Positions 35,723 to 49,024 are shown, counted from the first letter of the stretch. The stretch is 64,000 bases of DNA from an uncultured Gammaproteobacteria bacterium (GCA_964355175.1 CAYHBZ010000001.1:240523-304522); one strand, 5' to 3'. Notes: a model not told the origin generated them from the letters alone. Made by a program: numbers and translations.

Positions 35723-35796
35723 GGGCAGTAAAGGATTCGAACCTTTGACCCCCTCGGTGTAAACGAGGTGCTCTAACCAACTGAGCTAACTGCCCA
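35723..35796 (-). tRNA. tRNA-Val (anticodon TAC). No encoded CCA.
   Basis: Minus-strand transcript GGGCAGUUAGCUCAGUUGGUUAGAGCACCUCGUUUACACCGAGGGGGUCAAAGGUUCGAAUCCUUUACUGCCCA. Cloverleaf folds with anticodon loop UUUACAC. Confidence 0.9.
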
Positions 35797-35846
35797 AAAC
35801 TGTGATTAATATACTAGAAAATTTAATTTTAGTCAATGGCCGGTAA

Positions 35847-36842
35847 TTATTTTTGTAGACCGGATACATAATCCGCAATTTCGCTATCACCGTGAAGCTC
35901 GAGCCAATACCACCACTCTACCCCCCAAAAATAAGAACGACTAAAACCGGTCTTTTGGGCAAACTCCAAATTTTTCTTCAAACGATCCAGATTCATGGAT
36001 TTAAATTGTTCGGTGATGTTTTCAACTGTCACAATATTTTGCGGCAACCAAGGCTCGGCCTGCAATTCGGCCACCCAAGTACTAGCGAGAGAGCGTCCAT
36101 GGCCCAGAGCGCGCCAGCGGTAATATATCGCCGGCACCCAATCATACCCTACATATCCCAAATCTGGATTCCATACGACACGATAAACTGTGCTACCAAA
36201 TAGATCGCCGGCCATAGCGGTCTTATTCCAAAAACTCAGCTCACCACTATCGGTCACCAACACTTGGCGAGACGAATCGATTTTTTTGACGGTCGCAATT
36301 TCAGCTTGAAGCTTATCCGTGGTCATTTTACGACAGACCGCGCCAAAGGCTAAAAATGGCTCATTTTCTACCTGCCAAATTTCCACCGCTGGATTATTTT
36401 TATAACGCTCGGTGACGACGCTCAAATAATTATTCAAAGCGGAAAAATATTTACCTTCCGGCAAATTCTGAGTCCAGGCCGGCACATTGCATTCCGGCCA
36501 ACGGGGAGTCTTTTGTCCCATCGCCAGTACTACTTTGGCATTGCGTTTGGCCGCCTCGGCAATAAAATAATCAACTTGCGTGAAATCAAATTTTCCTTTT
36601 TGTGTTTCCACCACATCCCAACGTGCGGTGAGACGCAAATATTTAAATTTATATTTATCCAAAATTACCTGGTAAGTTTCTTTGGGATCTAGTCCCAGAT
36701 ATTGGGCATATTCAGGACTAAAAGAAACACCCAAGAGCATATCTTTATTGGGCCGAGAAAATATTTTTTCGGCGCAATACAAAAATAATATTATCACCGC
36801 CAAAATAATTAAAATTATAAAAAATATTTTTGTAAATTTCAT
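35847..36842 (-). CDS. Membrane-anchored TIM-barrel glycoside hydrolase (GH5/GH113-like)
   Basis: N-terminal TM. VEIWQVENEPFLAF (NEP catalytic acid motif). Confidence 0.5.
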   Translation of the reverse strand: MKFTKIFFIILIILAVIILFLYCAEKIFSRPNKDMLLGVSFSPEYAQYLGLDPKETYQVILDKYKFKYLRLTARWDVVETQKGKFDFTQVDYFIAEAAKRNAKVVLAMGQKTPRWPECNVPAWTQNLPEGKYFSALNNYLSVVTERYKNNPAVEIWQVENEPFLAFGAVCRKMTTDKLQAEIATVKKIDSSRQVLVTDSGELSFWNKTAMAGDLFGSTVYRVVWNPDLGYVGYDWVPAIYYRWRALGHGRSLASTWVAELQAEPWLPQNIVTVENITEQFKSMNLDRLKKNLEFAQKTGFSRSYFWGVEWWYWLELHGDSEIADYVSGLQK

Positions 36843-37756
36843 ACTAATAAAATTAAACCCACACCAATTAATACTACCGCCAAAAATTCTTGAATCATTT
36901 CTGCCGGCGTATAATCTTCCTTAAAGACTTTTGGCCAAAAGCGGCTGAGCAACATTACGCCCAATATTAAAACCGCATATTGCAGACCACCCAGAGCGCT
37001 GACCAGCGACACACTGCCTATCGCCGTAGCGTATTGAATGAATAATACCGCGACTACCGCCAATATCTTATTAAAAATAATCAATCCGGTATGCTTATTT
37101 TTTTGAACCGCGAATTTATTTTTTATTTTATCCAGCCAGGTAGGACGCAGGAGAGATTTCAAAGTTTCAGGACTAAATAAAAAAAACAAACCGGATATAC
37201 CAATGAAAAATCGGCTCCAAACAAAGCCGGTCATAAATCCATATTTGTCATACAAATATTTGGCGCTCACATAAGATACGGCAAAAAATAATCCGGACAA
37301 AATCCCATAGACCACTCCCAAATGCAGACCATTATGTTTTTTACTTTTTTCAAACGCTATTAATACCGAACCAATAATCAGCAATCCCACCGCCCACAAT
37401 TCCGACGAAATCAAAGCTTCGCCCAAAAATAAATTACTAAAAATAAGCACAAACAATGGTGAAGCCGCTCCCACGAGCGGACCAACATGACTGACTTCAC
37501 TTTTTTCAAAACCCAAAAACATCATCCACATCGCCAAGGTGTAGGTGGTGCCGCAAATGATCGCCCATCCCCAATCCTCCCAACCGGATACCAATCCGGG
37601 ATAAAAAAAATAAAGAATAACAATTGCCAATAACGGGGCCGAAGAATAAAAAGTATAAAGTGCCGGTTTCACTTTCGCAGAAGACAATAAAAATTTATCA
37701 ACAATACAAACCAAAGCCAAAAGAATATAACCAGCCGCTGAAAATAAAAACCACAT
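36839..37756 (-). CDS. EamA/DMT-superfamily transporter (10 TM)
   Basis: Two 5-TM halves. Start overlaps the upstream stop (ATGA). Confidence 0.55.
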   Translation of the reverse strand: MWFLFSAAGYILLALVCIVDKFLLSSAKVKPALYTFYSSAPLLAIVILYFFYPGLVSGWEDWGWAIICGTTYTLAMWMMFLGFEKSEVSHVGPLVGAASPLFVLIFSNLFLGEALISSELWAVGLLIIGSVLIAFEKSKKHNGLHLGVVYGILSGLFFAVSYVSAKYLYDKYGFMTGFVWSRFFIGISGLFFLFSPETLKSLLRPTWLDKIKNKFAVQKNKHTGLIIFNKILAVVAVLFIQYATAIGSVSLVSALGGLQYAVLILGVMLLSRFWPKVFKEDYTPAEMIQEFLAVVLIGVGLILLV

Positions 37757-37872
37757 AAATATTTAAAATAAATTCTTTTATTATTATAACACAAAAAAAC
37801 ATCCGAATCTAATCGAATGTTTTTTGTTTTACCATATCCACTGTCTACTTTTTCAAATAAACATTGGACATG

Positions 37873-38397
37873 GAGAGTAGCGCGCGACTACCAACCCCAG
37901 AGGTCAGGTACGCGATGCGACGCAGACTACACGAGGCCAGCCTACTTCGGCCAGACACTCGGTGCGACGGCCGGCTGGACGGCGTGAATCCGGGGCGAAG
38001 ACGGACTGCGACTGGTCGTCCAGCGATCAGGATTGGCTTCGGGATGTACGAAGCCCTCCTCCTCGCCGACAGGCGACGTCAGGAGCGACGCAGCCGCCGG
38101 CTTGGGCTCAGCGCCACCGAGGCCACCGTGTCCGGACGGGAGGAAGTGCAAGGACTCGGGACCACCGCACTGGGCGCGGCTGAAATTTCGGACTGCCAAG
38201 GGATGTTGTGGATGGGAACGACCGTCGGACATGACTGCCTCCTTCTCTTGCGAGAAGTGTTGCGAGCTCTCTGCGATTGGCATTGAGCTGGCCTCCCACC
38301 ATAAAGCGAAGTTGCCAAAGAGCGGGGAAAGATTATCCAAACTTTAGATATTCTTTCCCCACTCTTTGCACAAACTTGCTGTTTGCGCGCTACTCTA
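37873..38397. repeat. ~525-bp GC-rich non-host-like block bounded by 13-bp terminal inverted repeats AGAGTAGCGCGCG / CGCGCGCTACTCT
   Basis: Abrupt jump to GC-rich composition versus ~35% flanks. Exact inverted repeat read from sequence. Only overlapping low-quality ORFs inside. Confidence 0.4.
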
Positions 38398-38562
38398 ATT
38401 TATAAAGAACAATCTCTCAAAGTAAATATATTTAAAAAAATAAAAATATATTTGCCTTGGGCATCGTCGTGGCTGTATGAAAACAACCACGACAATGTAA
38501 ATGTGAATATGAAATTCGCGCCAAAGCGCAAAGCTCATAAATACGAAAGAGCAAACTACCTG

Positions 38563-38601
38563 CCGCGGGTGGGCTACACAATCGAAACTGCGTAGCCCAC
38601 C
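38563..38601 (-). terminator. GC-rich 12-bp stem-loop downstream of the high-GC minus-strand ORF
   Basis: CGGGTGGGCTAC-(14 nt)-GTAGCCCACCCG, followed on the minus strand by a T-rich stretch. Confidence 0.4.
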
Positions 38602-38646
38602 CGGATGGCTGTCACGGACTCGATCTTCCCAGACTTCCTGCGCTAG

Positions 38647-39012
38647 CTACGCTGCCATGATCTTCACGATCGCGAGCTGGCACTTGGCGGCCAGCGGATC
38701 GTGTTCACGCTCGAGCGCCTTGCTCTCCCAGACCACCACGCGGGCGATCTGGGCGTGCGGCTTGATGGACTCGACGGCCGTGTGGACGGCAGGAATGCGG
38801 AACCGGTCGGCGGCGACTTCCACGACGTGGGTGTGCTGGAAGCGGCCGGGGCGCAGCTTCGTGCTGTCCTTCAGGGACTCGAGCACGATATGCGCAAGCT
38901 CTTCATCCGTCCCTTCGAAGTGGGGGCGGCTGTTGCTGGTCGGGCTGTACTTGCGCACGGTGGGGTGGAGTTTGATGCCTTGAATGCCATCGGGCACGGG
39001 GACAACGGTCAT
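38647..39012 (-). CDS. Hypothetical 121-aa protein encoded with strong GC3 codon bias (foreign-like)
   Basis: Codons overwhelmingly NNC/NNG (e.g. ACC GTT GTC CCC GTG CCC GAT GGC), unlike every neighbouring gene. Overlapping plus-strand ORFs are probably shadows. Confidence 0.45.
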   Translation of the reverse strand: MTVVPVPDGIQGIKLHPTVRKYSPTSNSRPHFEGTDEELAHIVLESLKDSTKLRPGRFQHTHVVEVAADRFRIPAVHTAVESIKPHAQIARVVVWESKALEREHDPLAAKCQLAIVKIMAA

Positions 39013-39451
39013 GGCGATACCTTTTCCTTGGCAAAAATCAATCTGTAGTCCTGGAGACTACTCTTCGCTCCGCGGTAGAGCGACCCCGGCCGATTGACAA
39101 TTTTTGTGCACTCCGGGAAATTATATCCAAATCATTAGATATATTTCCCCGGAATACACTTTTTTAAAAGAACTCTTTTTATAAAAAATCACCCTAATCT
39201 TTCGATTTAGGGTGATTGTTATAAATTTTATTTTATACAATTTTACCCTAAATCATTTACCCAAACAAAAGCATAGCGTACCAAGGTAGCTGTCTTCAAT
39301 GTCTTGCGAATGTTTAGATGGTTAAATTGCATACAAAAATAATCTTATCAGAAATTCAGAAAAAGTCAACTGGTCTATCCACATTGCGACCAAAACGCTT
39401 TTGGCCAATGACATTATTTGGCTTATTTTAGCCAAGATTTGCCCAAAGGCC

Positions 39452-39480
39452 TTGACAAAATCCTGTACTTGTGGTATCCT
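39452..39480 (+). promoter_or_regulatory. Putative sigma70 promoter TTGACA-17-TATCCT for the GT4 gene
   Basis: TTGACA 39452-39457. TGgTATCCT 39472-39480. About 33 nt upstream of ATG 39513. Confidence 0.4.
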
Positions 39481-39512
39481 TTAGAGTTTTAATTACTAAG
39501 TCAACGCCCAAT

Positions 39513-40676
39513 ATGCGTATAGCCATGATCGGACAAAAAGGTATCCCAGCCATCTACGGTGGCGTGGAGCGCCACGTGGAAGACTTGTCTCTGGAGTTGA
39601 CCAAACAAGGCCATGATATTTTGGTATACGCTCGCGCTTGGTACACCCCAACTGCTCTGAAAAATTACCACGGTGTACGCGTAATTCATACCCCTACTAT
39701 TCATACCAAAAATCTTGATGCCATTGTCGGTACTTTTACTGCCACTGTTCATGCCCTGTTTCAAAACTATGATGTAATTCATTATCATGGTGTTGGTCCG
39801 GCTTTACTTTCTTGGATTCCAAGATTGTTTGCGCCGAAAACAAAAGTGATTGTAACTTTCCATTGTATTGATCGCTACCACCAAAAATGGGGACCAGTGG
39901 CCAGACTGATGTTGTGGCTCGGTGAAAAAGCCGCTTGTACTTTCCCCCACCAGACTATCGTGGTATCTCGCACTATCCAAAGTTATTGTCTCAACGAATT
40001 CCAACGCAAAACCGATTTCATTCCAAATGGTGTAAGCATGGCCAAAAATATTGGCGATAGCTTGTTGCACAAATTTGATATCAAAAAGAACAAATATATT
40101 TTGATGGTCGCGCGTCTCGTGCGCCACAAAGGCGCTCACTATTTGCTAGAAGCTTGGCAGATTGCCCGTCAGCAATATCCACATTTGCTCAAAGACCATA
40201 AATTGGTAATTGTGGGTGGCAGTACTTTTACTGATAGTTATGTAAAAGAATTACGCCATATTGCGCGCGGTGATAAAAGTATTGTCTTTACCAACTGGCA
40301 GAATGGTCAGATACTCGAAGAGCTTTACAAAAATTGTGAGCTCTATGTAAACCCATCTGAAAATGAAGGGTTGCCAATCTCAGTACTGCAAGCCATGGCT
40401 TATGGTAAACCAGTATTGCTTTCCAACATTCCTGAACACTTGGAACTGATTGAAAATCCAAATTTTTTCTTTCACAATGCCAGCATCACTTCTTTGGCTG
40501 ATAAAATTGTGCAATTGATGAAAGATAAAGCCGCTCTATCCGAGCAAGGTGAAATCAATAAAACGCTCACAATCAAAAAATACGATTGGAAAAAATTGAG
40601 TCGTCAGACTTTGGCGGTGTATCACACCGGTGAAGATAAAATAAAAAAAGCACAATATAAAATCAGGCAAGCTTAA
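39513..40676 (+). CDS. Glycosyltransferase family 4 (GT-B). Start at MRIAMIGQKG rather than the ORF-track 39471.
   Basis: MRIAMIGQKGIPAIYGGVERHVEDL (GT4 N-terminus) ... NPSENEGLPISVLQAMAYGKPVLLSN (EX7E). Confidence 0.75.
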   Translation: MRIAMIGQKGIPAIYGGVERHVEDLSLELTKQGHDILVYARAWYTPTALKNYHGVRVIHTPTIHTKNLDAIVGTFTATVHALFQNYDVIHYHGVGPALLSWIPRLFAPKTKVIVTFHCIDRYHQKWGPVARLMLWLGEKAACTFPHQTIVVSRTIQSYCLNEFQRKTDFIPNGVSMAKNIGDSLLHKFDIKKNKYILMVARLVRHKGAHYLLEAWQIARQQYPHLLKDHKLVIVGGSTFTDSYVKELRHIARGDKSIVFTNWQNGQILEELYKNCELYVNPSENEGLPISVLQAMAYGKPVLLSNIPEHLELIENPNFFFHNASITSLADKIVQLMKDKAALSEQGEINKTLTIKKYDWKKLSRQTLAVYHTGEDKIKKAQYKIRQA

Positions 40677-40706
40677 ACTACACTACTACCCATTGTGTAG
40701 TTTTTG
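40675..40706 (+). terminator. Rho-independent terminator of the GT4 gene
   Basis: AAACTACAC-(11 nt)-GTGTAGTTT + TTT. The stem includes the stop codon. Confidence 0.55.
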
Positions 40707-40830
40707 CTATAAAATATATTTTTGATACTCACCTTTATTTTTAAATAGAGGTGATTTAAAAAGTATATTGAATTGTTCTTTTAAAAAAATGTCATTCCCG
40801 CGAAAGCGGGAATCTATATGTACTGATACA

Positions 40831-40891
40831 AGAGGCAAAAGGTATTATTTTTTTCTAAATTTTAGGAATACATAATACCCTTTGCCTCTGG
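40831..40891. repeat. 18-bp inverted repeat with a 25-nt loop at the left edge of GC island 2
   Basis: AGAGGCAAAAGGTATTAT ... ATAATACCCTTTGCCTCT. Confidence 0.35.
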
Positions 40892-40948
40892 AATTTTCTC
40901 CTGAGGCATCCGTCGGTTGGGCCCGACATTTCCCTCTGGAGGTATCCC

Positions 40949-41458
40949 ATGCGCCACAAGCGCTTCGTTCCCGTGTTCGTGGTTCTGGCCATTGTAGCCG
41001 CGCAACTCTTCACCGGGACCGCCAAGGCCGAGCCGGCCGTCGGCAAGGACATGCGCAAGCTGCACGTGATGAACAATTGTTCCGACGAGCAGTGCTTCTA
41101 CACCGAAATCCCCAAGGGCTGGCACGCCCCCAAGGAAAAACCAAACCCCGCGCAAGTCCGCCAAGTCTACTACCTGGCAGACGACCGCTCGAACCAGAAG
41201 AAGCTCTCGGTCGTTTCGATCACCCCGACCGACCAGGAAAAGAGCGACTTCAAGGAGAAGATGCATCAACAGTGCGAAGCGCAGTCGGCCCGGTACGGTT
41301 GGGACAAGAAAACCTGCCTGAACAACCGGCAAGAACTCAAGCAGACGATGTACGCGATCTGTACGCCCAGCATCAAGGGCTGCGACAAGTTCGAGTGCTT
41401 GAAGGACTGCTACGAGCCGTACCCGACCAAGCCGCCGGCGCGCAACGCCAAGAAGTAG
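40949..41458 (+). CDS. Secreted cysteine-rich 169-aa protein encoded in a high-GC, high-GC3 island
   Basis: Signal peptide MRHKRFVPVFVVLAIVAAQLFTGTAKA. Ten Cys. GGAGG RBS 7 nt upstream. Codon usage is NNC/NNG-dominated. Confidence 0.55.
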   Translation: MRHKRFVPVFVVLAIVAAQLFTGTAKAEPAVGKDMRKLHVMNNCSDEQCFYTEIPKGWHAPKEKPNPAQVRQVYYLADDRSNQKKLSVVSITPTDQEKSDFKEKMHQQCEAQSARYGWDKKTCLNNRQELKQTMYAICTPSIKGCDKFECLKDCYEPYPTKPPARNAKK

Positions 41459-41591
41459 ACGGGGGTGCTACCGTCGACGCGTGTCCCACTCGCCAACAAG
41501 CGGGCAGTGGGACGCAGGCAGTATAAAATATCACTCGCCGCGCAATTTGAAAATAACATATTTGTTTTCAGATTGTGCGAGTGATATAAAC

Positions 41592-42805: not shown

Positions 42806-44416
42806 ATGGAAAAAATCAAGAGTATTGAAGAAAAAATTATCCGGGAGTGCTATAAAAAACCTCCAAAAAAACCAGACGATATCAATGTGATAAAGCGTCG
42901 AATTTTGCGCGCCCATTTTGGCGGCGGCACACCACCGACTTCGACACAATTGCTTAAAGCATATCATAAACTAGTCAAAGAAAACAAGCTCAAACCCAAC
43001 CTGGCTCTGGAAAATGTGCTCCAGCGCCGCGCGGTGCGCACCATGTCCGGTGTGACTATCGTCACTGCTCTCACCAAGCCATATCCATGCCCAGGTCTCT
43101 GCACCTACTGCCCCACCGAAGCGCGCATGCCCAAGAGTTATATTTCCGACGAGCCGGCGGCGGCCCGGGCTTTGGCTTTGGAATTTGATCCTTATGAACA
43201 AACTTGGCGCCGTCTCGAGGCGCTACGCAAAAATGGCCATCCGATTGATAAGGTAGAATTAATTATCAAAGGTGGTACTTGGAATTCTTATCCGATTACT
43301 TATCAATACTGGTTTATCGCCCGCTGTTTTGAAGCCTGCAATCGCGTACGCAAAACCAAAGTATCGGAAAAAATGACGTTGGATGAATTGCGAGCGGCGA
43401 TGGTAAAAATTCAAAATAAAAATGAAACGGCTAAACATCGTATTATTGGTTTAACTTTGGAAACTCGTCCGGATTTTATTACTCATAAAACAATTCTCGC
43501 GATGCGTGAAATGGGTACCACTCGTATTGAAATCGGTGTGCAGCATATCGACGAAAAAATAATGAAGATGACCAAACGCGGACATGGACTGAAAGAAACC
43601 GTAGACGCAAGTAAACTTTTGCGCCAATACGGATTTAAAGTAGATTATCATTTGATGCCGCAACTGCCATTTAGCACTCCAGCCAAAGATCTCAAAATGT
43701 TACGCCAAATTTTTACCGACAATCGTCTGCGTCCCGACATGATTAAAATTTATCCATGTACGGTCGTAAAAAATTCCGAATTATACGAATGGGTAAAAAC
43801 CGGACAGTTCAAACCTTACGCCGACAAACATCTTCTGCGAATTCTCAAAGAATTTAAATCTGATGTCCCCCGCTATCTACGCATCTCGCGCCTGATTCGT
43901 GACATTCCATCTCATCATATCGTGGCGGGAAATATGGTCACCAATTTACGCCAAGTAATTCAAGCGGAAATGAAAGCCGAAGGAAACACTTGTCGCTGTT
44001 TGCGTTGTCGCGAAGTGGGCCACCAGACCGAGATTGATTGGAAAAAAGAAAAAATAAAAAAATTCGTAGACCAATACGAAACCAGCGGTGGCCAAGAATA
44101 CTTTATGAGTTTTGAAAATGAAACGCGTGACGCGGTGTTGGCTTTTTGTCGCTTCCGTATTGATCCGTCCGGCATCTATCCGGCCTTTGTGCGCGAGCTA
44201 CATGTATACGGACAGTCCGTAGAAATCGCTGGACACAAAAAAGGCGCTTCTCAACACACTGGCTTTGGAAAAGAACTGGTAAAAACCGCGATGGAAATTT
44301 GTAAACAAAATAAAATACCGCGCTTGGCGGTAATTTCGGGTGTGGGCGTGCGTGATTACTATCGCAAACAAGGTGCGAAGCTGGATGGAAATTATATGGT
44401 CTTTGATGTTAAATAA
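42806..44416 (+). CDS. Elp3-like tRNA-modifying radical-SAM + GNAT acetyltransferase
   Basis: KPYPCPGLCTYCP (Elp3-type CX9CX2C radical-SAM cluster) ... IEIGVQHIDEKI ... C-terminal GNAT QHTGFGKELVKTAMEIC. Confidence 0.8.
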   Translation: MEKIKSIEEKIIRECYKKPPKKPDDINVIKRRILRAHFGGGTPPTSTQLLKAYHKLVKENKLKPNLALENVLQRRAVRTMSGVTIVTALTKPYPCPGLCTYCPTEARMPKSYISDEPAAARALALEFDPYEQTWRRLEALRKNGHPIDKVELIIKGGTWNSYPITYQYWFIARCFEACNRVRKTKVSEKMTLDELRAAMVKIQNKNETAKHRIIGLTLETRPDFITHKTILAMREMGTTRIEIGVQHIDEKIMKMTKRGHGLKETVDASKLLRQYGFKVDYHLMPQLPFSTPAKDLKMLRQIFTDNRLRPDMIKIYPCTVVKNSELYEWVKTGQFKPYADKHLLRILKEFKSDVPRYLRISRLIRDIPSHHIVAGNMVTNLRQVIQAEMKAEGNTCRCLRCREVGHQTEIDWKKEKIKKFVDQYETSGGQEYFMSFENETRDAVLAFCRFRIDPSGIYPAFVRELHVYGQSVEIAGHKKGASQHTGFGKELVKTAMEICKQNKIPRLAVISGVGVRDYYRKQGAKLDGNYMVFDVK

Positions 44417-45485: not shown

Positions 45486-45661
45486 ACTCGCGAATACATC
45501 CCTTTCACTCACCTAGAAAACACTCGGATAATTTGCAACTCCCTGAGCCTCTGGCCCTGAACTCGCCTGTGGGCTCAAACAGCAGGGCCAGCCACGACTC
45601 TGGGACTCACAAATTATTTCCTCGTGTTTTCACGGTTCGTTACAGGGATATATTCGCGAGT
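45486..45661 (+). repeat. Copy B of the ~176-nt conserved inverted-repeat element, immediately upstream of glyA
   Basis: 18-bp terminal helix ACTCGCGAATACATCCCT/AGGGATATATTCGCGAGT. Core AATTTGCAAC...CCCTGAACTCG...CAGCAGGGCCAG...CTCACAAATT. Confidence 0.5.
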
Positions 45662-46997: not shown

Positions 46998-47137
46998 ATT
47001 CTATAAAATTGTTCTTTGATAAGTTTCGCTTACCAATAGCAAAAAGGAAGTATATAATGCTTCTTATTTGCTGTTGGGAGGTGAACGAAACTTTTCGTTC
47101 TGTTTCACTTCAGTAAACCCGAGCCCAAGGAAAGAAA

Positions 47138-47440
47138 GTGCAGATCCTATTTACGATCTTGGTCCCGTCTGTTTTGGCCTACCTTCTCTTCATTTTCGGG
47201 CGGCGACAACTCCGCAAGAGGGAGTGGGCGCGCCTCACCGGGAAGCGGTGGCAGGAACCGAGCAGCGAGTTCGAAAACACCTGGTCATTCCAGGACACGA
47301 TCCTCACGGTCATCGCCAAGTCCGGCGATCATGACCGCTTCGAAGCTACTCGCAAGCTTGCTAGCCAATTGGAGCTCGGACATCCGTGGACCAGCCGTCC
47401 GCGCGAGATTCCGCAATTCGGGGTCTACGCCAACCGATGA
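47138..47440 (+). CDS. Small (100 aa) high-GC membrane protein with a GTG start
   Basis: AAGGAAAG SD 5 nt upstream of GTG. N-terminal TM ILFTILVPSVLAYLLFIFG. GC-rich codons, in contrast to flanks. Confidence 0.4.
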   Translation: MQILFTILVPSVLAYLLFIFGRRQLRKREWARLTGKRWQEPSSEFENTWSFQDTILTVIAKSGDHDRFEATRKLASQLELGHPWTSRPREIPQFGVYANR

Positions 47441-47539
47441 ATCCGACGAGACAGAACGAAGACGGCGACGGAGTGCAAACTCCGCCGCCTGCTTCAATGA
47501 AATACTTTTGCAAAAAGGTAAAGGTACTTGATTAAAGCA

Positions 47540-47580
47540 AATTTAAAAAATAAAAAAGAACTAAAATTTTTTAGTTCTTT
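47540..47580. terminator. AT-rich bidirectional hairpin terminator between island 3 and pyk
   Basis: AAGAACTAA-AATTTT-TTAGTTCTT flanked by A- and T-runs. Confidence 0.4.
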
Positions 47581-47593
47581 TTTATTTTTTAAA

Positions 47594-49024
47594 TTAAATT
47601 TCTCTTACTTCTACCAAATTTACTTTACTTTCCTGCCCTATCGGATCACCGGCTACCACCACAATCTTATCACCTTTTTTAGCCAGCTTATTCTTTTTTA
47701 TATACTCGGTCGCTTTTTTTATAAAATCTTCAATGTGCTTCACGCGTGGAATAATAAAAGGCACTACTCCCCAAGATAAATTTAGTTGTCTTTGCACACG
47801 CAAAGAATTGGTTGCTACCAAAATTGGCACTTGCGGACGCACACGGGCAATCATACGGGCAGTTTCTCCAGACACTGAATCCGCCACAATTAATTTGGAA
47901 CCGACTTCAAAAGAAAGAGTGCGGGATAATTCAGTAATCGCCGACGGAGCCGAACCTTTGATAGAAGTCGGCATCGCCAAGTCATCAAACGGCGAGGCTT
48001 CGGTAGTAATTACAATATCACTCATCGTTTTGACGGTCAAAACCGGAAACTCTCCGGAAGCAGTTTCGTTGGATAACATCACCGCATCGGCATGATCGAT
48101 GACCGCATTGGCAACATCGGAAACCTCCGCGCGAGTAGGACGACGATTATGTTGCATGGAATCAAGCATCTGAGTAGCCACAATTACCGGTTTGGACAAA
48201 GCGTTGGCTTTGGCAATCATCGCTTTTTGCAACAAAGGTACTTCGGCGGCTTTCATCTCCAGACCCAAATCGCCGCGGGCGACCATAATACAATCCACCG
48301 CTTGTAAAATAGCGTCCATATTTTCTACCGCTTCATGTTGTTCTATTTTGGCAATAATTAAAATTGGCGCTTGTTTTTTTAGTTTTAATTTTTTTTCAAA
48401 CTTTTTTATCAAAGCGCGCAAACGGATAATATCCTGCGCGGCATGCACAAACGACAGAGCGACAAACTCCACGCCAATCTTTACGCCAAATTCCAAATCT
48501 TCAATATCCTTTTTGCTAAGCGCCGGAATTTTCAAAACACTATCCGGAAAATTTAGGCCTTTGTGAGAAGACAATAATTCCCCTTCAATTACCTGCCCAA
48601 AAATTTTGCTACCTACGATCTTTTCAATCTTTACTTCCATATGACCGTCATCAAGCAAAAAGTGTTGGCCTTTTTTCAAAAATTTCTGCAAACCAGGATA
48701 AGAGACCGGCAATTCTTTGCCTTTGTATTCTTTTAAGTTAGTATCAAAAATAATTTTTTCTCCAGCTTTTATCAGCAGACCTTTTTCCGGCAAAATACCC
48801 AAACGAATTTTTGGTCCCTGCAAATCCTGCAAAATCGCCACCGGCATACCAGTCTTTTTTTCTACCTTTCGGATATTGTTTATCAATTTTTTGTGGCTGG
48901 CGTAAGTACCGTGAGAAAAATTCAGCCTGGCTACATTCACTCCGGCCTTTACCATTTGGGTCAAGGTTTTTTCATCAGCACAAGCCGGACCAATAGTCGC
49001 TACGATCTTGGTAGATTTATACAT
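47594..49024 (-). CDS. pyk: Pyruvate kinase
   Basis: KIVATIGPACADEKTLTQMVKAGVNVARLNFSHGTYASHKKLI ... MVARGDLGLE. Confidence 0.95.
   Translation of the reverse strand: MYKSTKIVATIGPACADEKTLTQMVKAGVNVARLNFSHGTYASHKKLINNIRKVEKKTGMPVAILQDLQGPKIRLGILPEKGLLIKAGEKIIFDTNLKEYKGKELPVSYPGLQKFLKKGQHFLLDDGHMEVKIEKIVGSKIFGQVIEGELLSSHKGLNFPDSVLKIPALSKKDIEDLEFGVKIGVEFVALSFVHAAQDIIRLRALIKKFEKKLKLKKQAPILIIAKIEQHEAVENMDAILQAVDCIMVARGDLGLEMKAAEVPLLQKAMIAKANALSKPVIVATQMLDSMQHNRRPTRAEVSDVANAVIDHADAVMLSNETASGEFPVLTVKTMSDIVITTEASPFDDLAMPTSIKGSAPSAITELSRTLSFEVGSKLIVADSVSGETARMIARVRPQVPILVATNSLRVQRQLNLSWGVVPFIIPRVKHIEDFIKKATEYIKKNKLAKKGDKIVVVAGDPIGQESKVNLVEVREI

Follow-up and report, generated by a model that had tools for sequence, protein, structure and literature searches.

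A resident GC-rich island of Candidatus Magasanikbacteria with conserved RNA scaffolds and a probable pair of hypervariable small-gene messages

The stretch analyzed here, referred to throughout as the window, is 64,000 nucleotides (nt) of DNA deposited under an uncultured Gammaproteobacteria bacterium (GCA_964355175.1, CAYHBZ010000001.1:240523-304522). Between an EamA/DMT transporter gene and a GT4 gene it contains a GC-rich segment, island 1, which is predicted to hold two small transcription units on the minus strand, designated 1b and 1a, each with a promoter-like motif, a structured RNA scaffold and a GC-rich small open reading frame (ORF). A reading of this DNA made from the sequence alone (the sequence-only reading) had drawn attention to a jump in composition between the two flanking genes, and windowed GC content bore it out: the whole 64-kb window has 38.9% GC, rising to 66% at 37950-38249 and 65% at 38550-38999, with an AT-rich gap at 38400-38550 separating the two peaks. 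Two further islands of similar kind, which that reading had also reported, were found at about 40826-41520 (island 2) and 47030-47500 (island 3).

Using the GT4 protein as query, 80 related loci were fetched, all of them from Candidatus Magasanikbacteria or other Patescibacteria (comparison loci carry L numbers below). The gene order GH-EamA-gap-GT4-MT-ELP3-(ThiE)-SHMT-PK was kept in most of these (dozens of Magasanikbacteria loci), where MT stands for methyltransferase, SHMT for serine hydroxymethyltransferase and PK for pyruvate kinase. Logan assemblies of two independent runs (ERR3856788 and SRR24858484) matched the window with 100% identity across the island junctions, reproducing the spans 35760-41041 and 38177-41555, and the 121-residue protein of unit 1b was also encoded on a 953,736-bp NCBI contig. 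Because independent assemblies are identical at the junctions and orthologues exist, the earlier suspicion of a chimeric or contaminating fragment is excluded, and island 1 is resident DNA of a Candidatus Magasanikbacteria chromosome (Patescibacteria, or candidate phyla radiation, CPR). The description of the segment as foreign-looking DNA found no support for island 1 either, as units 1a and 1b are resident across Magasanikbacteria and GC content at third codon positions (GC3) is high even in relatives whose version of the 121-residue protein is 36-40% identical.

The half of the island next to the EamA/DMT gene is bounded by an inverted repeat that had been described as 13 bp and exact. The repeat is real, but it contains one mismatch and only 12 bp are exact: AGAGTAGCGCGCG at 37874-37886 is partnered by TGCGCGCTACTCT at 38384-38396, and the exact arms are 37874-37885 (AGAGTAGCGCGC) and its complement at 38385-38396. 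The search for other copies that had been proposed found none elsewhere in the window. By count alone the repeat is weak, with 6 of 100 shuffles giving at least two matches, and its significance comes from comparative data rather than counts. For this comparison, we used 14 distinct copies of unit 1a from Magasanikbacteria, including Logan and metagenome contigs. The element stands in single copy upstream of the EamA/DMT gene across the 14 genomes; in L004-L012 its ends are 77-92% identical in nucleotides at the same position, and its interior cannot be aligned. A covariance model of the 3' module found exactly one strong copy in each of 13 loci and no dispersed strong copies among 86 sources (1.45 Mb). 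One weak match elsewhere (37 bits, E about 4e-6) falls behind the GH gene of a less closely related locus (L019 5493-5576) and may be a diverged or relocated copy.

The copies of unit 1a share a single layout. From the minus-strand start, a promoter-like GTTCTTT and TAYAAA are followed by UAGAGUAG(C/U)G(C/U)G(C/U) and an A-rich linker; the middle contains a hairpin of about 35 bp, a small hairpin occluding part of a strong Shine-Dalgarno sequence (SD), and an ATG-led ORF; and the 3' part comprises a near-invariant CUGGGGUUGGUAG block, then sequence complementary to the 5' end, and after that another hairpin, the intrinsic terminator and the EamA promoter. The GTTCTTT ahead of the unit is almost invariant in the 14 orthologues. 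The two arms of the inverted repeat thus become the strands of a helix, P1, with the long hairpin P2 and the 3' hairpin P3 inside and behind it. Across the 14 sequences, 99.4% of P1 cells were paired, with two pairs changed on both sides (C-G to U-A); the apical 16 pairs of P2 were 96.4% paired with nine of the 16 compensatory; and P3 was 94% paired with compensatory changes in 6 of 18 pairs. Slid controls for these helices gave 42-49% pairing. In total, 29 pairs of the structure showed changes on both sides, and the observed covariation score was reached by none of 500 shuffles.

The non-Watson-Crick cells carry strand information. G·U cells exceeded A·C cells in every helix (15 vs 1 in P1, 20 vs 0 in P2 and 27 vs 4 in P3), giving 62 vs 5 over P1, apical P2 and P3, which implies that the minus strand is selected as RNA and speaks against a DNA-level terminal repeat, operator or cruciform. 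The 609-nt transcript folded to -277 kcal/mol, compared with -210 ± 7 for shuffles (z = -9.3), and P1 was present in both the minimum free energy (MFE) and centroid structures. These features indicate that P1 is an RNA helix on the minus strand closing a predicted transcript of about 600 nt. One of the two options offered by the sequence-only reading, the closing helix of a structured RNA of about 520 nt, was therefore upheld by the covariation and the G·U-over-A·C asymmetry, with the addition that the RNA carries an SD-led ORF. The AT-rich palindromes were also considered as sigma-70 promoters or operators; this was rejected because L008, L009 and L011 do not conserve the -10-like boxes while pairing is kept. 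Rfam returned only a tRNA-Val at gathering score in the window and no credible sub-threshold match in the islands at E ≤ 10, and no tmRNA was found by ARAGORN.

In the window, the ORF of unit 1a runs on the minus strand from an ATG at 38232 to a stop at 37942 and would encode 96 residues rich in Pro, Gly and Ser behind a strong AAGGAGG ribosome-binding site. The block had been thought to contain only mutually overlapping poor ORFs, which is correct in that the window copy lacks codon periodicity but overlooks this SD-led frame and its SD-led equivalents in 13 of 14 elements. In those 13, an SD (often AAGGAGG) and an ATG occupy the equivalent place, the ORFs span 50-129 codons, and they always stop 18-72 nt before the conserved 3' block. 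Their products are rich in Pro, Gly, Ser and Arg, have no hydrophobic helix, and share short motifs: GGP..EPKP..VGEE.PL (weakly, P..VGEE.PL) and, in L004, L005 and L012, IAV.G.GK..R..AL..LPP. The window and L008 proteins are 46% identical over 69 residues, and the L005 ORF is periodic with a GC3 of 0.81. On balance, we favor the view that unit 1a encodes a translated, fast-evolving small protein.

Unit 1b precedes unit 1a on the same strand and begins with a structured leader. The pairs of its 5'-terminal 24-bp hairpin are kept across five alleles with compensatory and G·U changes, and 11 of 44 leader pairs changed on both sides in the same alleles; the module that varies between strains starts just 3' of the three-way junction. 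Folding of the unit gave a z-score of -5.3. The proposed structures of both units are thus carried by comparative data. The 121-residue, high-GC3 ORF was confirmed where it had been placed (GC at the three codon positions of 0.67/0.41/0.86, vs a host GC3 of 0.37-0.43). The stem-loop behind it had been called a 12-bp GC-rich terminator at 38563-38601. It is indeed present, slightly shifted, with 11 perfect bp extendable to 17, but it is not a canonical intrinsic terminator because no U-tract follows. Every 1b allele has a hairpin at this position, and the sequences differ. The inter-unit segment beyond it also holds a degenerate GTTCTTT-like motif, is conserved in L087, L090 and L099, and has a hairpin (hairpin B) that covaries by eye; it is either the 3' untranslated region (UTR) and terminator of unit 1b or a separate RNA of about 100 nt.

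A k-mer-indexed search of 5.8 billion clusters with the 121-residue protein recovered only the protein itself, and an exhaustive HMMER search of 1.84 billion representatives recovered seven relatives with 36-58% identity and the invariant motifs HP...HF.G...L...G...KP.A. The protein is best described as a hypervariable allele of a small family specific to Magasanikbacteria. It has no match in Pfam, NCBIfam or PADLOC at E ≤ 0.1, and a sequence-profile search of the PDB gave only a chance match to bS21. An AlphaFold2 model reached a pLDDT of 80.6 with eight sequences vs 41.7 with the single sequence. Relatives with readable context adjoin GT4, MT, ELP3 or EamA (L087/88, L090 and L100-103). GT4 is the neighbor in L087/88, the gene stands ahead of a 1a element and EamA in L090, and MT or ELP3 are neighbors in L100 and L103, with EamA also downstream in L100. 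In L099, the relative is followed by the same inter-unit scaffold and by a 1a element, and its called neighbor has no Pfam match. All of these relatives have a GC3 of 0.60-0.93, vs 0.41-0.51 in neighboring genes. A recent insertion of unit 1b, as suggested by the apparently empty site in L005, was rejected on finding these diverged homologues at the same locus.

Divergence between strains is concentrated in the ORF modules. Between the window and L087, the GT4 gene is about 92% identical in nucleotides and the upstream hairpin 100%, the 1b leader is about 70% identical, and the 1b ORF is 35-60% identical in nucleotides and 43% in amino acids; the ends of unit 1a are about 85% identical around an interior that cannot be aligned. 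L087 and L089, drawn from separate data sets, show 100% identity over hundreds of nucleotides on both sides of 1b ORFs that share about 50% of nucleotides and 46% of residues and differ by indels of 3 and 12 nt. The divergence is bounded by a point about 20 nt before the ATG, just ahead of the ribosome-binding site, and by the stop codon, and L084 and L090 show the same left boundary. Synonymous divergence (dS) among 1b alleles is saturated at 0.7-3.5. Allele similarity groups the window with L084, and flank similarity groups the window with L087/L089 and L084 with L090. At the level of the sequences compared, the 1b ORF modules are hypervariable relative to their scaffolds, and their alleles are ancient and incongruent with the flanks. 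From this we infer that ORF modules are exchanged by homologous recombination within conserved scaffolds and maintained as a balanced polymorphism.

Two other sources of this variation were considered. A recent burst of mutation was set aside, as saturated dS and the incongruence of alleles and flanks instead fit ancient recombined alleles. Nor is the ORF the target of a diversity-generating retroelement, because the alleles differ at every kind of base and by indels throughout its length; no template-like second copy was found in 36.5-49 kb or by tblastn in the window, and no genome-wide search for a reverse transcriptase was made. Separately, L089 (about 1000-1141) matches L087 up to the 5' arm of the long hairpin of unit 1a and diverges completely within the loop, continuing as unrelated AT-rich sequence with an 85-residue ORF on the other strand; this break is either a rearrangement or insertion or an assembly join. 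A 29-nt direct repeat with 83% identity, between the 1a interior (37965-37993) and the 121-residue ORF (38772-38800), is probably a chance similarity of GC-rich sequences.

Table 1. Features of island 1 and its flanks in the window.
Feature	Position	Strand	Remarks
EamA/DMT gene	36839-37756	minus	flanks island 1
EamA/DMT gene promoter TGTTATAAT	37783-37791	minus	directly after 1a terminator
Unit 1a	about 38397 to 37793	minus	transcript of ~600 nt predicted (609 nt folded)
1a intrinsic terminator, 13-bp stem and U-run	37793-37825	minus	
P3, 3' hairpin CCAUGUCCAAUGUUUA...UAGACAGUGGAUAUGG	37832-37873	minus	covariation
P1 3' strand GCGCGCUACUCU (left-hand inverted repeat)	37874-37885	minus	covariation
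3' block GACCUCUGGGGUUGGUAGU, nearly invariant	37887-37905	minus	orthologue alignment
SD-sequestering hairpin CUUCUC-GCAA-GAGAAG with SD AAGGAGG (38238-57), and variable small ORF	37942-38257	minus	
P2, long hairpin of ~35 bp	38306-38379	minus	covariation; present in MFE fold
P1 5' strand AGAGUAGCGCGC (right-hand inverted repeat)	38385-38396	minus	covariation
1a promoter-like region TTTACT-N16-TATAAA, including TTGTTCTTT at 38404-38412	38398-38426	minus	putative promoter
Unit 1b	about 39160 to 38434	minus	
Inter-unit segment, conserved	38434-38559	minus	hairpins 38511-38536 and 38462-38497, block CCCAAGGCAAATATATTTTT, T-run
1b 3' GC-rich stem-loop	38567-38602	minus	no U-tract
1b ORF, 121 residues	38647-39012	minus	ribosome-binding region 39020-39029
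1b leader three-way junction: 7-bp closing helix GUCAAUC/GAUUGA and two hairpins	39037-39098	minus	
1b 5'-terminal 24-bp hairpin	39106-39159	minus	RNAalifold, 5 alleles; also in MFE fold
1b upstream motif GAGTTCTTT	39167-39175	minus	promoter-like, putative function
Terminator-type hairpin ATCACCCTAAATCGAAAGATTAGGGTGATTTTTT ahead of unit 1b	39183-39216	minus	100% identical in L087/L089
GT4 gene	39471-40676	plus	flanks island 1

Islands 2 and 3 are built like units 1a and 1b: behind a TTGTTCTTT motif, each has a large hairpin on the 5' side, an SD with a GC-rich ORF and, on the 3' side, a GC hairpin. Island 2 encodes a 169-residue Cys-rich secreted protein (folding z-score -6.2) and island 3 a 100-residue membrane-anchored protein (-5.7). 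The promoter-like consensus TTGTTCTTT followed by TAYAAA is common to all four GC-rich cassettes, in the variant form GAGTTCTTT in unit 1b, and typically has a terminator ahead of it and a hairpin behind it. Of five exact TTGTTCTTT sites in the 64 kb, three lie directly upstream of cassettes in the correct orientation, and across loci GC-rich sequence is about 5-fold enriched downstream of the motif vs random positions. As the housekeeping promoters of the window (tRNA-Val, GT4 and others) are canonical TTGACA-N17-TATAAT without the TTGTTCTTT motif, this pattern suggests a separate cassette regulon with a lineage-specific promoter-like motif.

The cassettes also vary in presence. L005, the closest GTDB representative, lacks unit 1b and both of the other islands, and island 2 is absent from L071 and L087 as well. 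In L005, a hairpin matching the ATCACCCTAAATCGAAAGATTAGGGTGATTTTTT hairpin directly precedes unit 1a, and together with the GTTCTTT motif it leads straight into that unit, so that the boundary of 1b presence or absence coincides with two copies of the motif. The only relative of the island 2 protein (P0010) is 59% identical over the C-terminal half and is encoded on an 853-bp contig (L104 1-853) with 63% GC throughout, which makes it plausible that island 2 was exchanged with a GC-rich genome. Scans of viral contigs for island 2 gave no match, and no homologue of the island 3 ORF was found.

Third codon positions of the cassette ORFs contain 1-11% A and 5-23% T, and those of host genes 24-28% A and 29-37% T. 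Since this GC-richness persists across alleles with saturated synonymous sites, it has been maintained and does not come from a recent donor; it is a long-standing property of the cassette genes that is restricted to their ORFs. Selection for RNA structure inside the ORFs was rejected as the cause because ORF-only folding z-scores are inconsistent, and the excess structure of the units sits in their UTR scaffolds. The composition could stem from biased gene conversion at a recombination hotspot, from selection favoring messages that resist RNase, or from continual replenishment out of an unsampled GC-rich pool. In related Magasanikbacteria genomes of 34-52% GC, we also noted Cys/Asp-rich secreted proteins of 400-1150 residues encoded at a GC3 of 0.81-0.84 (L067 6231-9680, L061 7203-9848, L055 1881-4142, L047 18360-20603, L078 11697-13898 and L044 19482-20711), and GC enrichment of a subset of genes, possibly for surface proteins, seems general in the lineage. 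Two further high-GC3 ORFs occupy variable slots, one of 211 residues directly upstream of GT4 in L008 (9216-9851, GC3 0.88) and one of 283 residues in L018 (3889-4740, GC3 0.91) that by eye looks like an OMP decarboxylase.

Taken as a whole, island 1 probably comprises two native, end-locked, stable structured mRNAs with anciently polymorphic, recombining and hypervariable ORF modules. Two co-oriented minus-strand small-gene transcription units would lie between GT4 and EamA/DMT, each with a lineage-specific promoter-like motif and a covarying RNA scaffold around an SD-led, GC-rich small ORF. In unit 1a, P1 would join the very 5' terminus of the transcript to a site immediately behind the ORF, followed by the 3' hairpin and the intrinsic terminator. 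Such paired or hairpin-capped ends may shield the mRNAs from 5' and 3' exonucleases, and the SD hairpin, the leader and the capped ends may also gate translation, the outcome being long-lived, regulated messages for small strain-specific proteins. Promoter use, mRNA stabilization, translation control and protein function are in this scheme predictions from the DNA.

Several points weigh against this interpretation. It leans on predicted transcript starts and stops, a putative promoter function and a presumed translation of the 1a ORF. The island proteins have no Pfam, NCBIfam, PHROG or PADLOC match, and Foldseek against the PDB with the model of the 121-residue protein returned nothing significant. 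The window 1a ORF shows no codon periodicity (0.69/0.60/0.70 GC at the three positions) and the 1a proteins can barely be aligned. ORF-only folding z-scores of -2.3 to +1.4 are not consistently beyond shuffles. The C-terminal half and 3' hairpin of island 2 are about 75-80% identical in nucleotides to the uniformly 63%-GC contig, and this similarity extends past the stop codon. Finally, where the flanks are identical, the boundaries of the ORF-only divergence are sharper than those usually left by simple homologous recombination, and such razor-sharp boundaries might reflect a dedicated exchange mechanism.

Among other explanations, the least unlikely takes unit 1a to be non-coding throughout, a structured RNA of a new class that measures about 600 nt and is closed by P1, with the ORF a by-product of stop-poor GC-rich sequence. 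Its covarying helices and very low folding energy suit an RNA gene, as do the missing periodicity of the window copy, the scarcely alignable interior proteins, the single element among 14 without an SD-led ORF, and further overlapping ORFs in other frames; nevertheless, we consider this rather unlikely given the fixed placement of SD, ATG and stop relative to the 3' block, the motifs common to the proteins, the window/L008 similarity and the periodic L005 ORF. Moreover, the interior is the least conserved part, which would be unusual for the core of a functional non-coding RNA, and no Rfam family matches. A toxin-antitoxin-like arrangement, in which the 121-residue protein would be a ribosome-dependent RNase like RelE, MqsR or HigB and the GC-rich, A-poor ORFs resistant transcripts, could account for the restriction of A/T depletion to translated regions, with the low third-position A content, and for the promoter motif common to the cassettes. 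It is improbable, as the protein has no sequence-family match, there is no recognizable antitoxin and no second ORF in unit 1b, and unit 1a, which has its own promoter-like motif, and other GC-rich cassettes occur without unit 1b (L004-L012).

The remaining alternatives concern mobility. A dedicated system of cassette capture and exchange, site-specific or RNA-templated and integron-like in function though structurally different, would use the conserved promoter and hairpin scaffolds as landing pads for SD-to-stop ORF modules, some from GC-rich donors. The variable segment lying between 100% identical flanks, with a left boundary repeated in L084/L090, the presence or absence of unit 1b exactly between two GTTCTTT motifs in the window vs L005, the 3' half and hairpin that island 2 has in common with the 63%-GC contig, and the motif, hairpin and GC-rich ORF common to all four cassettes would fit such a system. 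It is nonetheless distinctly unlikely: no integrase, recombinase or reverse transcriptase was identified among the genes flanking the islands, which are those that were screened; the hairpins lack attC core sites and show RNA-type G·U covariation on the gene strand; the 1b alleles are ancient and homologous rather than unrelated genes; and the right boundary is not fixed, since window/L084 similarity continues past the stop codon and L087/L089 break at it, so that ordinary recombination fits. A related and still unlikely proposal is a Magasanikbacteria expression-scaffold system, in which TTGTTCTTT-marked promoters and hairpin frames between housekeeping genes would serve as slots for swapped SD-to-stop ORFs, some from GC-rich donors, resembling integrons without attC or a recognizable integrase; the persistent GC-richness and A-depletion of the ORFs alone would then come from that donor pool or from selection for transcripts able to resist an A/U-directed ribosome-dependent RNase, possibly the 121-residue protein. 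Recent horizontal gene transfer (HGT) out of an organism with high GC, or else contamination or a chimera, could be suspected from 60-66% GC and a GC3 of 0.86 within a 39%-GC genome, from Logan contigs that end within islands 1a and 2, and from the partial relative of island 2 on a GC-rich contig. It is very improbable given the identical independent assemblies over the junctions, the occurrence of 1a and 1b at one and the same locus across many Magasanikbacteria, some of them deeply diverged, and a GC3 that stayed high although saturated dS implies ample time for amelioration; the exhaustive HMMER search also placed no relative of the 121-residue protein outside this context, and the scaffolds are AT-moderate and lineage-specific. 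Least credible of all is a non-autonomous transposon akin to a miniature inverted-repeat transposable element (MITE) with terminal inverted repeats of 12-13 bp, the other option of the sequence-only reading, even though a 12-bp exact inverted repeat does bound a GC-rich block of about 520 bp. The element is single copy and keeps the same place in the gene order of at least 13 genomes, no target-site duplication surrounds it (the flanks ...GGACATGG and AATTTATA... contain no direct repeat), the covariation of the arms passes through G·U intermediates on just one strand, and the 5' arm lies at the predicted transcript start just downstream of the promoter-like motif. RNA covariation, single copy number and the missing target-site duplication led us to reject the MITE and accept the closing helix.

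The units resemble several known systems in part. The hok mRNAs of type I toxin-antitoxin systems, with their tac-fbi fold-back, are structured messages of several hundred nucleotides in which the 5' end pairs with a 3'-proximal element. Unit 1a is likewise predicted to be a compact mRNA with a 5'-3' fold-back (P1) and restricted access to the ribosome-binding site, but its Pro/Gly/Ser-rich product differs from the hydrophobic membrane toxin of about 50 residues, it has no mok-like overlapping frame that we could find, and there is no sequence or Rfam similarity. A plus-strand promoter-like site for an antisense RNA inside unit 1a was also absent from a consensus promoter scan, which is weak evidence. 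The 5' stabilizer stem-loops of the ompA, ermC and aprE leaders protect mRNAs from RNase E/J. Units 1b, 2 and 3 similarly have hairpins at or near the predicted 5' end and hairpins capping the 3' end, whereas in unit 1a the 5' end is sequestered by P1; at 24-35 bp the structures here are far larger, are tied to the promoter motif and hypervariable ORFs, and have 5' ends that are predictions only. As in OLE, ROOL, GOLLD, HEARO and raiA, a GC-rich, structured intergenic transcript of about 600 nt is predicted in an AT-rich genome, and the GC contrast that reveals such RNAs would reveal it too, but in contrast to these non-coding RNAs there is no Rfam match, the variable core has an SD-led ORF, and conservation is confined to the ends.

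With respect to variation, the sharp boundary between near-identical flank and diverged allele and the incongruence of alleles and flanks are like those of Staphylococcus aureus agr specificity groups, pneumococcal pherotypes and polymorphic toxin/immunity loci, whose allelic hypervariability is maintained through recombination or balancing selection. Borrelia vlsE is comparable in that the variable gene markedly exceeds the AT-rich genome around it in GC and carries an inverted repeat on its 5' side; unlike in vls, the window showed neither a silent cassette archive nor paralogues, and the whole ORF rather than segments is exchanged. Phage morons and integron cassettes are also small self-contained units of deviant composition between conserved genes whose presence varies, as it does for 1b and islands 2 and 3. 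The context here is chromosomal CPR DNA without phage genes, however, and the attC core sites R''(RYYYAAC)...R'(GTTRRRY) of integron cassettes are missing when the hairpins are read directly. The large palindromes instead lie 5' of the ORFs and covary as RNA, and the cassettes are split by housekeeping genes on both strands with no IntI among the neighbors screened.

Other elements near the islands were observed in passing. A hairpin ATTCCCGCGAAAGCGGGAAT flanked by TTTTAAAAAAATGTC at 40794-40813 recurs in distantly related Patescibacteria loci (three copies in L004, two in L083, and others in L006, L059 and L075; 88-97% identity, 92-97% in seven of eight matches) and looks like a widespread short repeat or terminator element. 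A second hairpin, ATATCACTCGC...GCGAGTGATAT at 41527-41590, has an 11-bp stem and a conserved loop of about 40 nt upstream of a coiled-coil gene and may be a leader or small RNA; it is 86% identical in L007 (11932-12042), though the preceding cassette ORF there is a different lipoprotein gene. Between ThiE and SHMT, just upstream of the latter (glyA-like) gene, an inverted repeat at 45486-45661 has 43-nt arms that are 79% complementary and 90 nt apart; it may be a structured leader and has no Rfam match at E ≤ 0.1. Island 3 is separated from the pyruvate kinase gene by sequence with a perfect 27-bp AT-rich palindrome (47540-47595), presumably a bidirectional terminator. Finally, two called ORFs, one for the ELP3-like radical-SAM/GNAT protein on the plus strand and one for the methyltransferase on the minus strand, have about 160 nt in common at their 5' ends (42806-42967); the start codon is probably wrongly assigned in at least one of them.

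Very little is known of gene regulation and strain variation in the CPR/Patescibacteria, ultra-small episymbionts that for the most part have not been cultivated, and a literature search on GC-rich or hypervariable cassettes in CPR found nothing relevant. The locus adds a new and well-supported RNA structure, namely an mRNA locked at its ends in which three helices covary, and a structured leader, neither of which is in Rfam, as well as a new small protein family present in no domain library. It also presents an unexplained population pattern in which flanks are identical and only the translated segment is replaced by an allele about 46% identical, while this segment alone keeps a GC3 of 0.6-0.93 in contexts of 38-50% GC across deep divergence. 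If selection is responsible, the cassette proteins would be prime candidates for roles that differ from strain to strain, for instance in interactions with hosts or kin; if a mechanism is responsible, it would be a new route of gene diversification. The locus also illustrates that a local rise in GC within an AT-rich genome is not necessarily a sign of HGT or misassembly.

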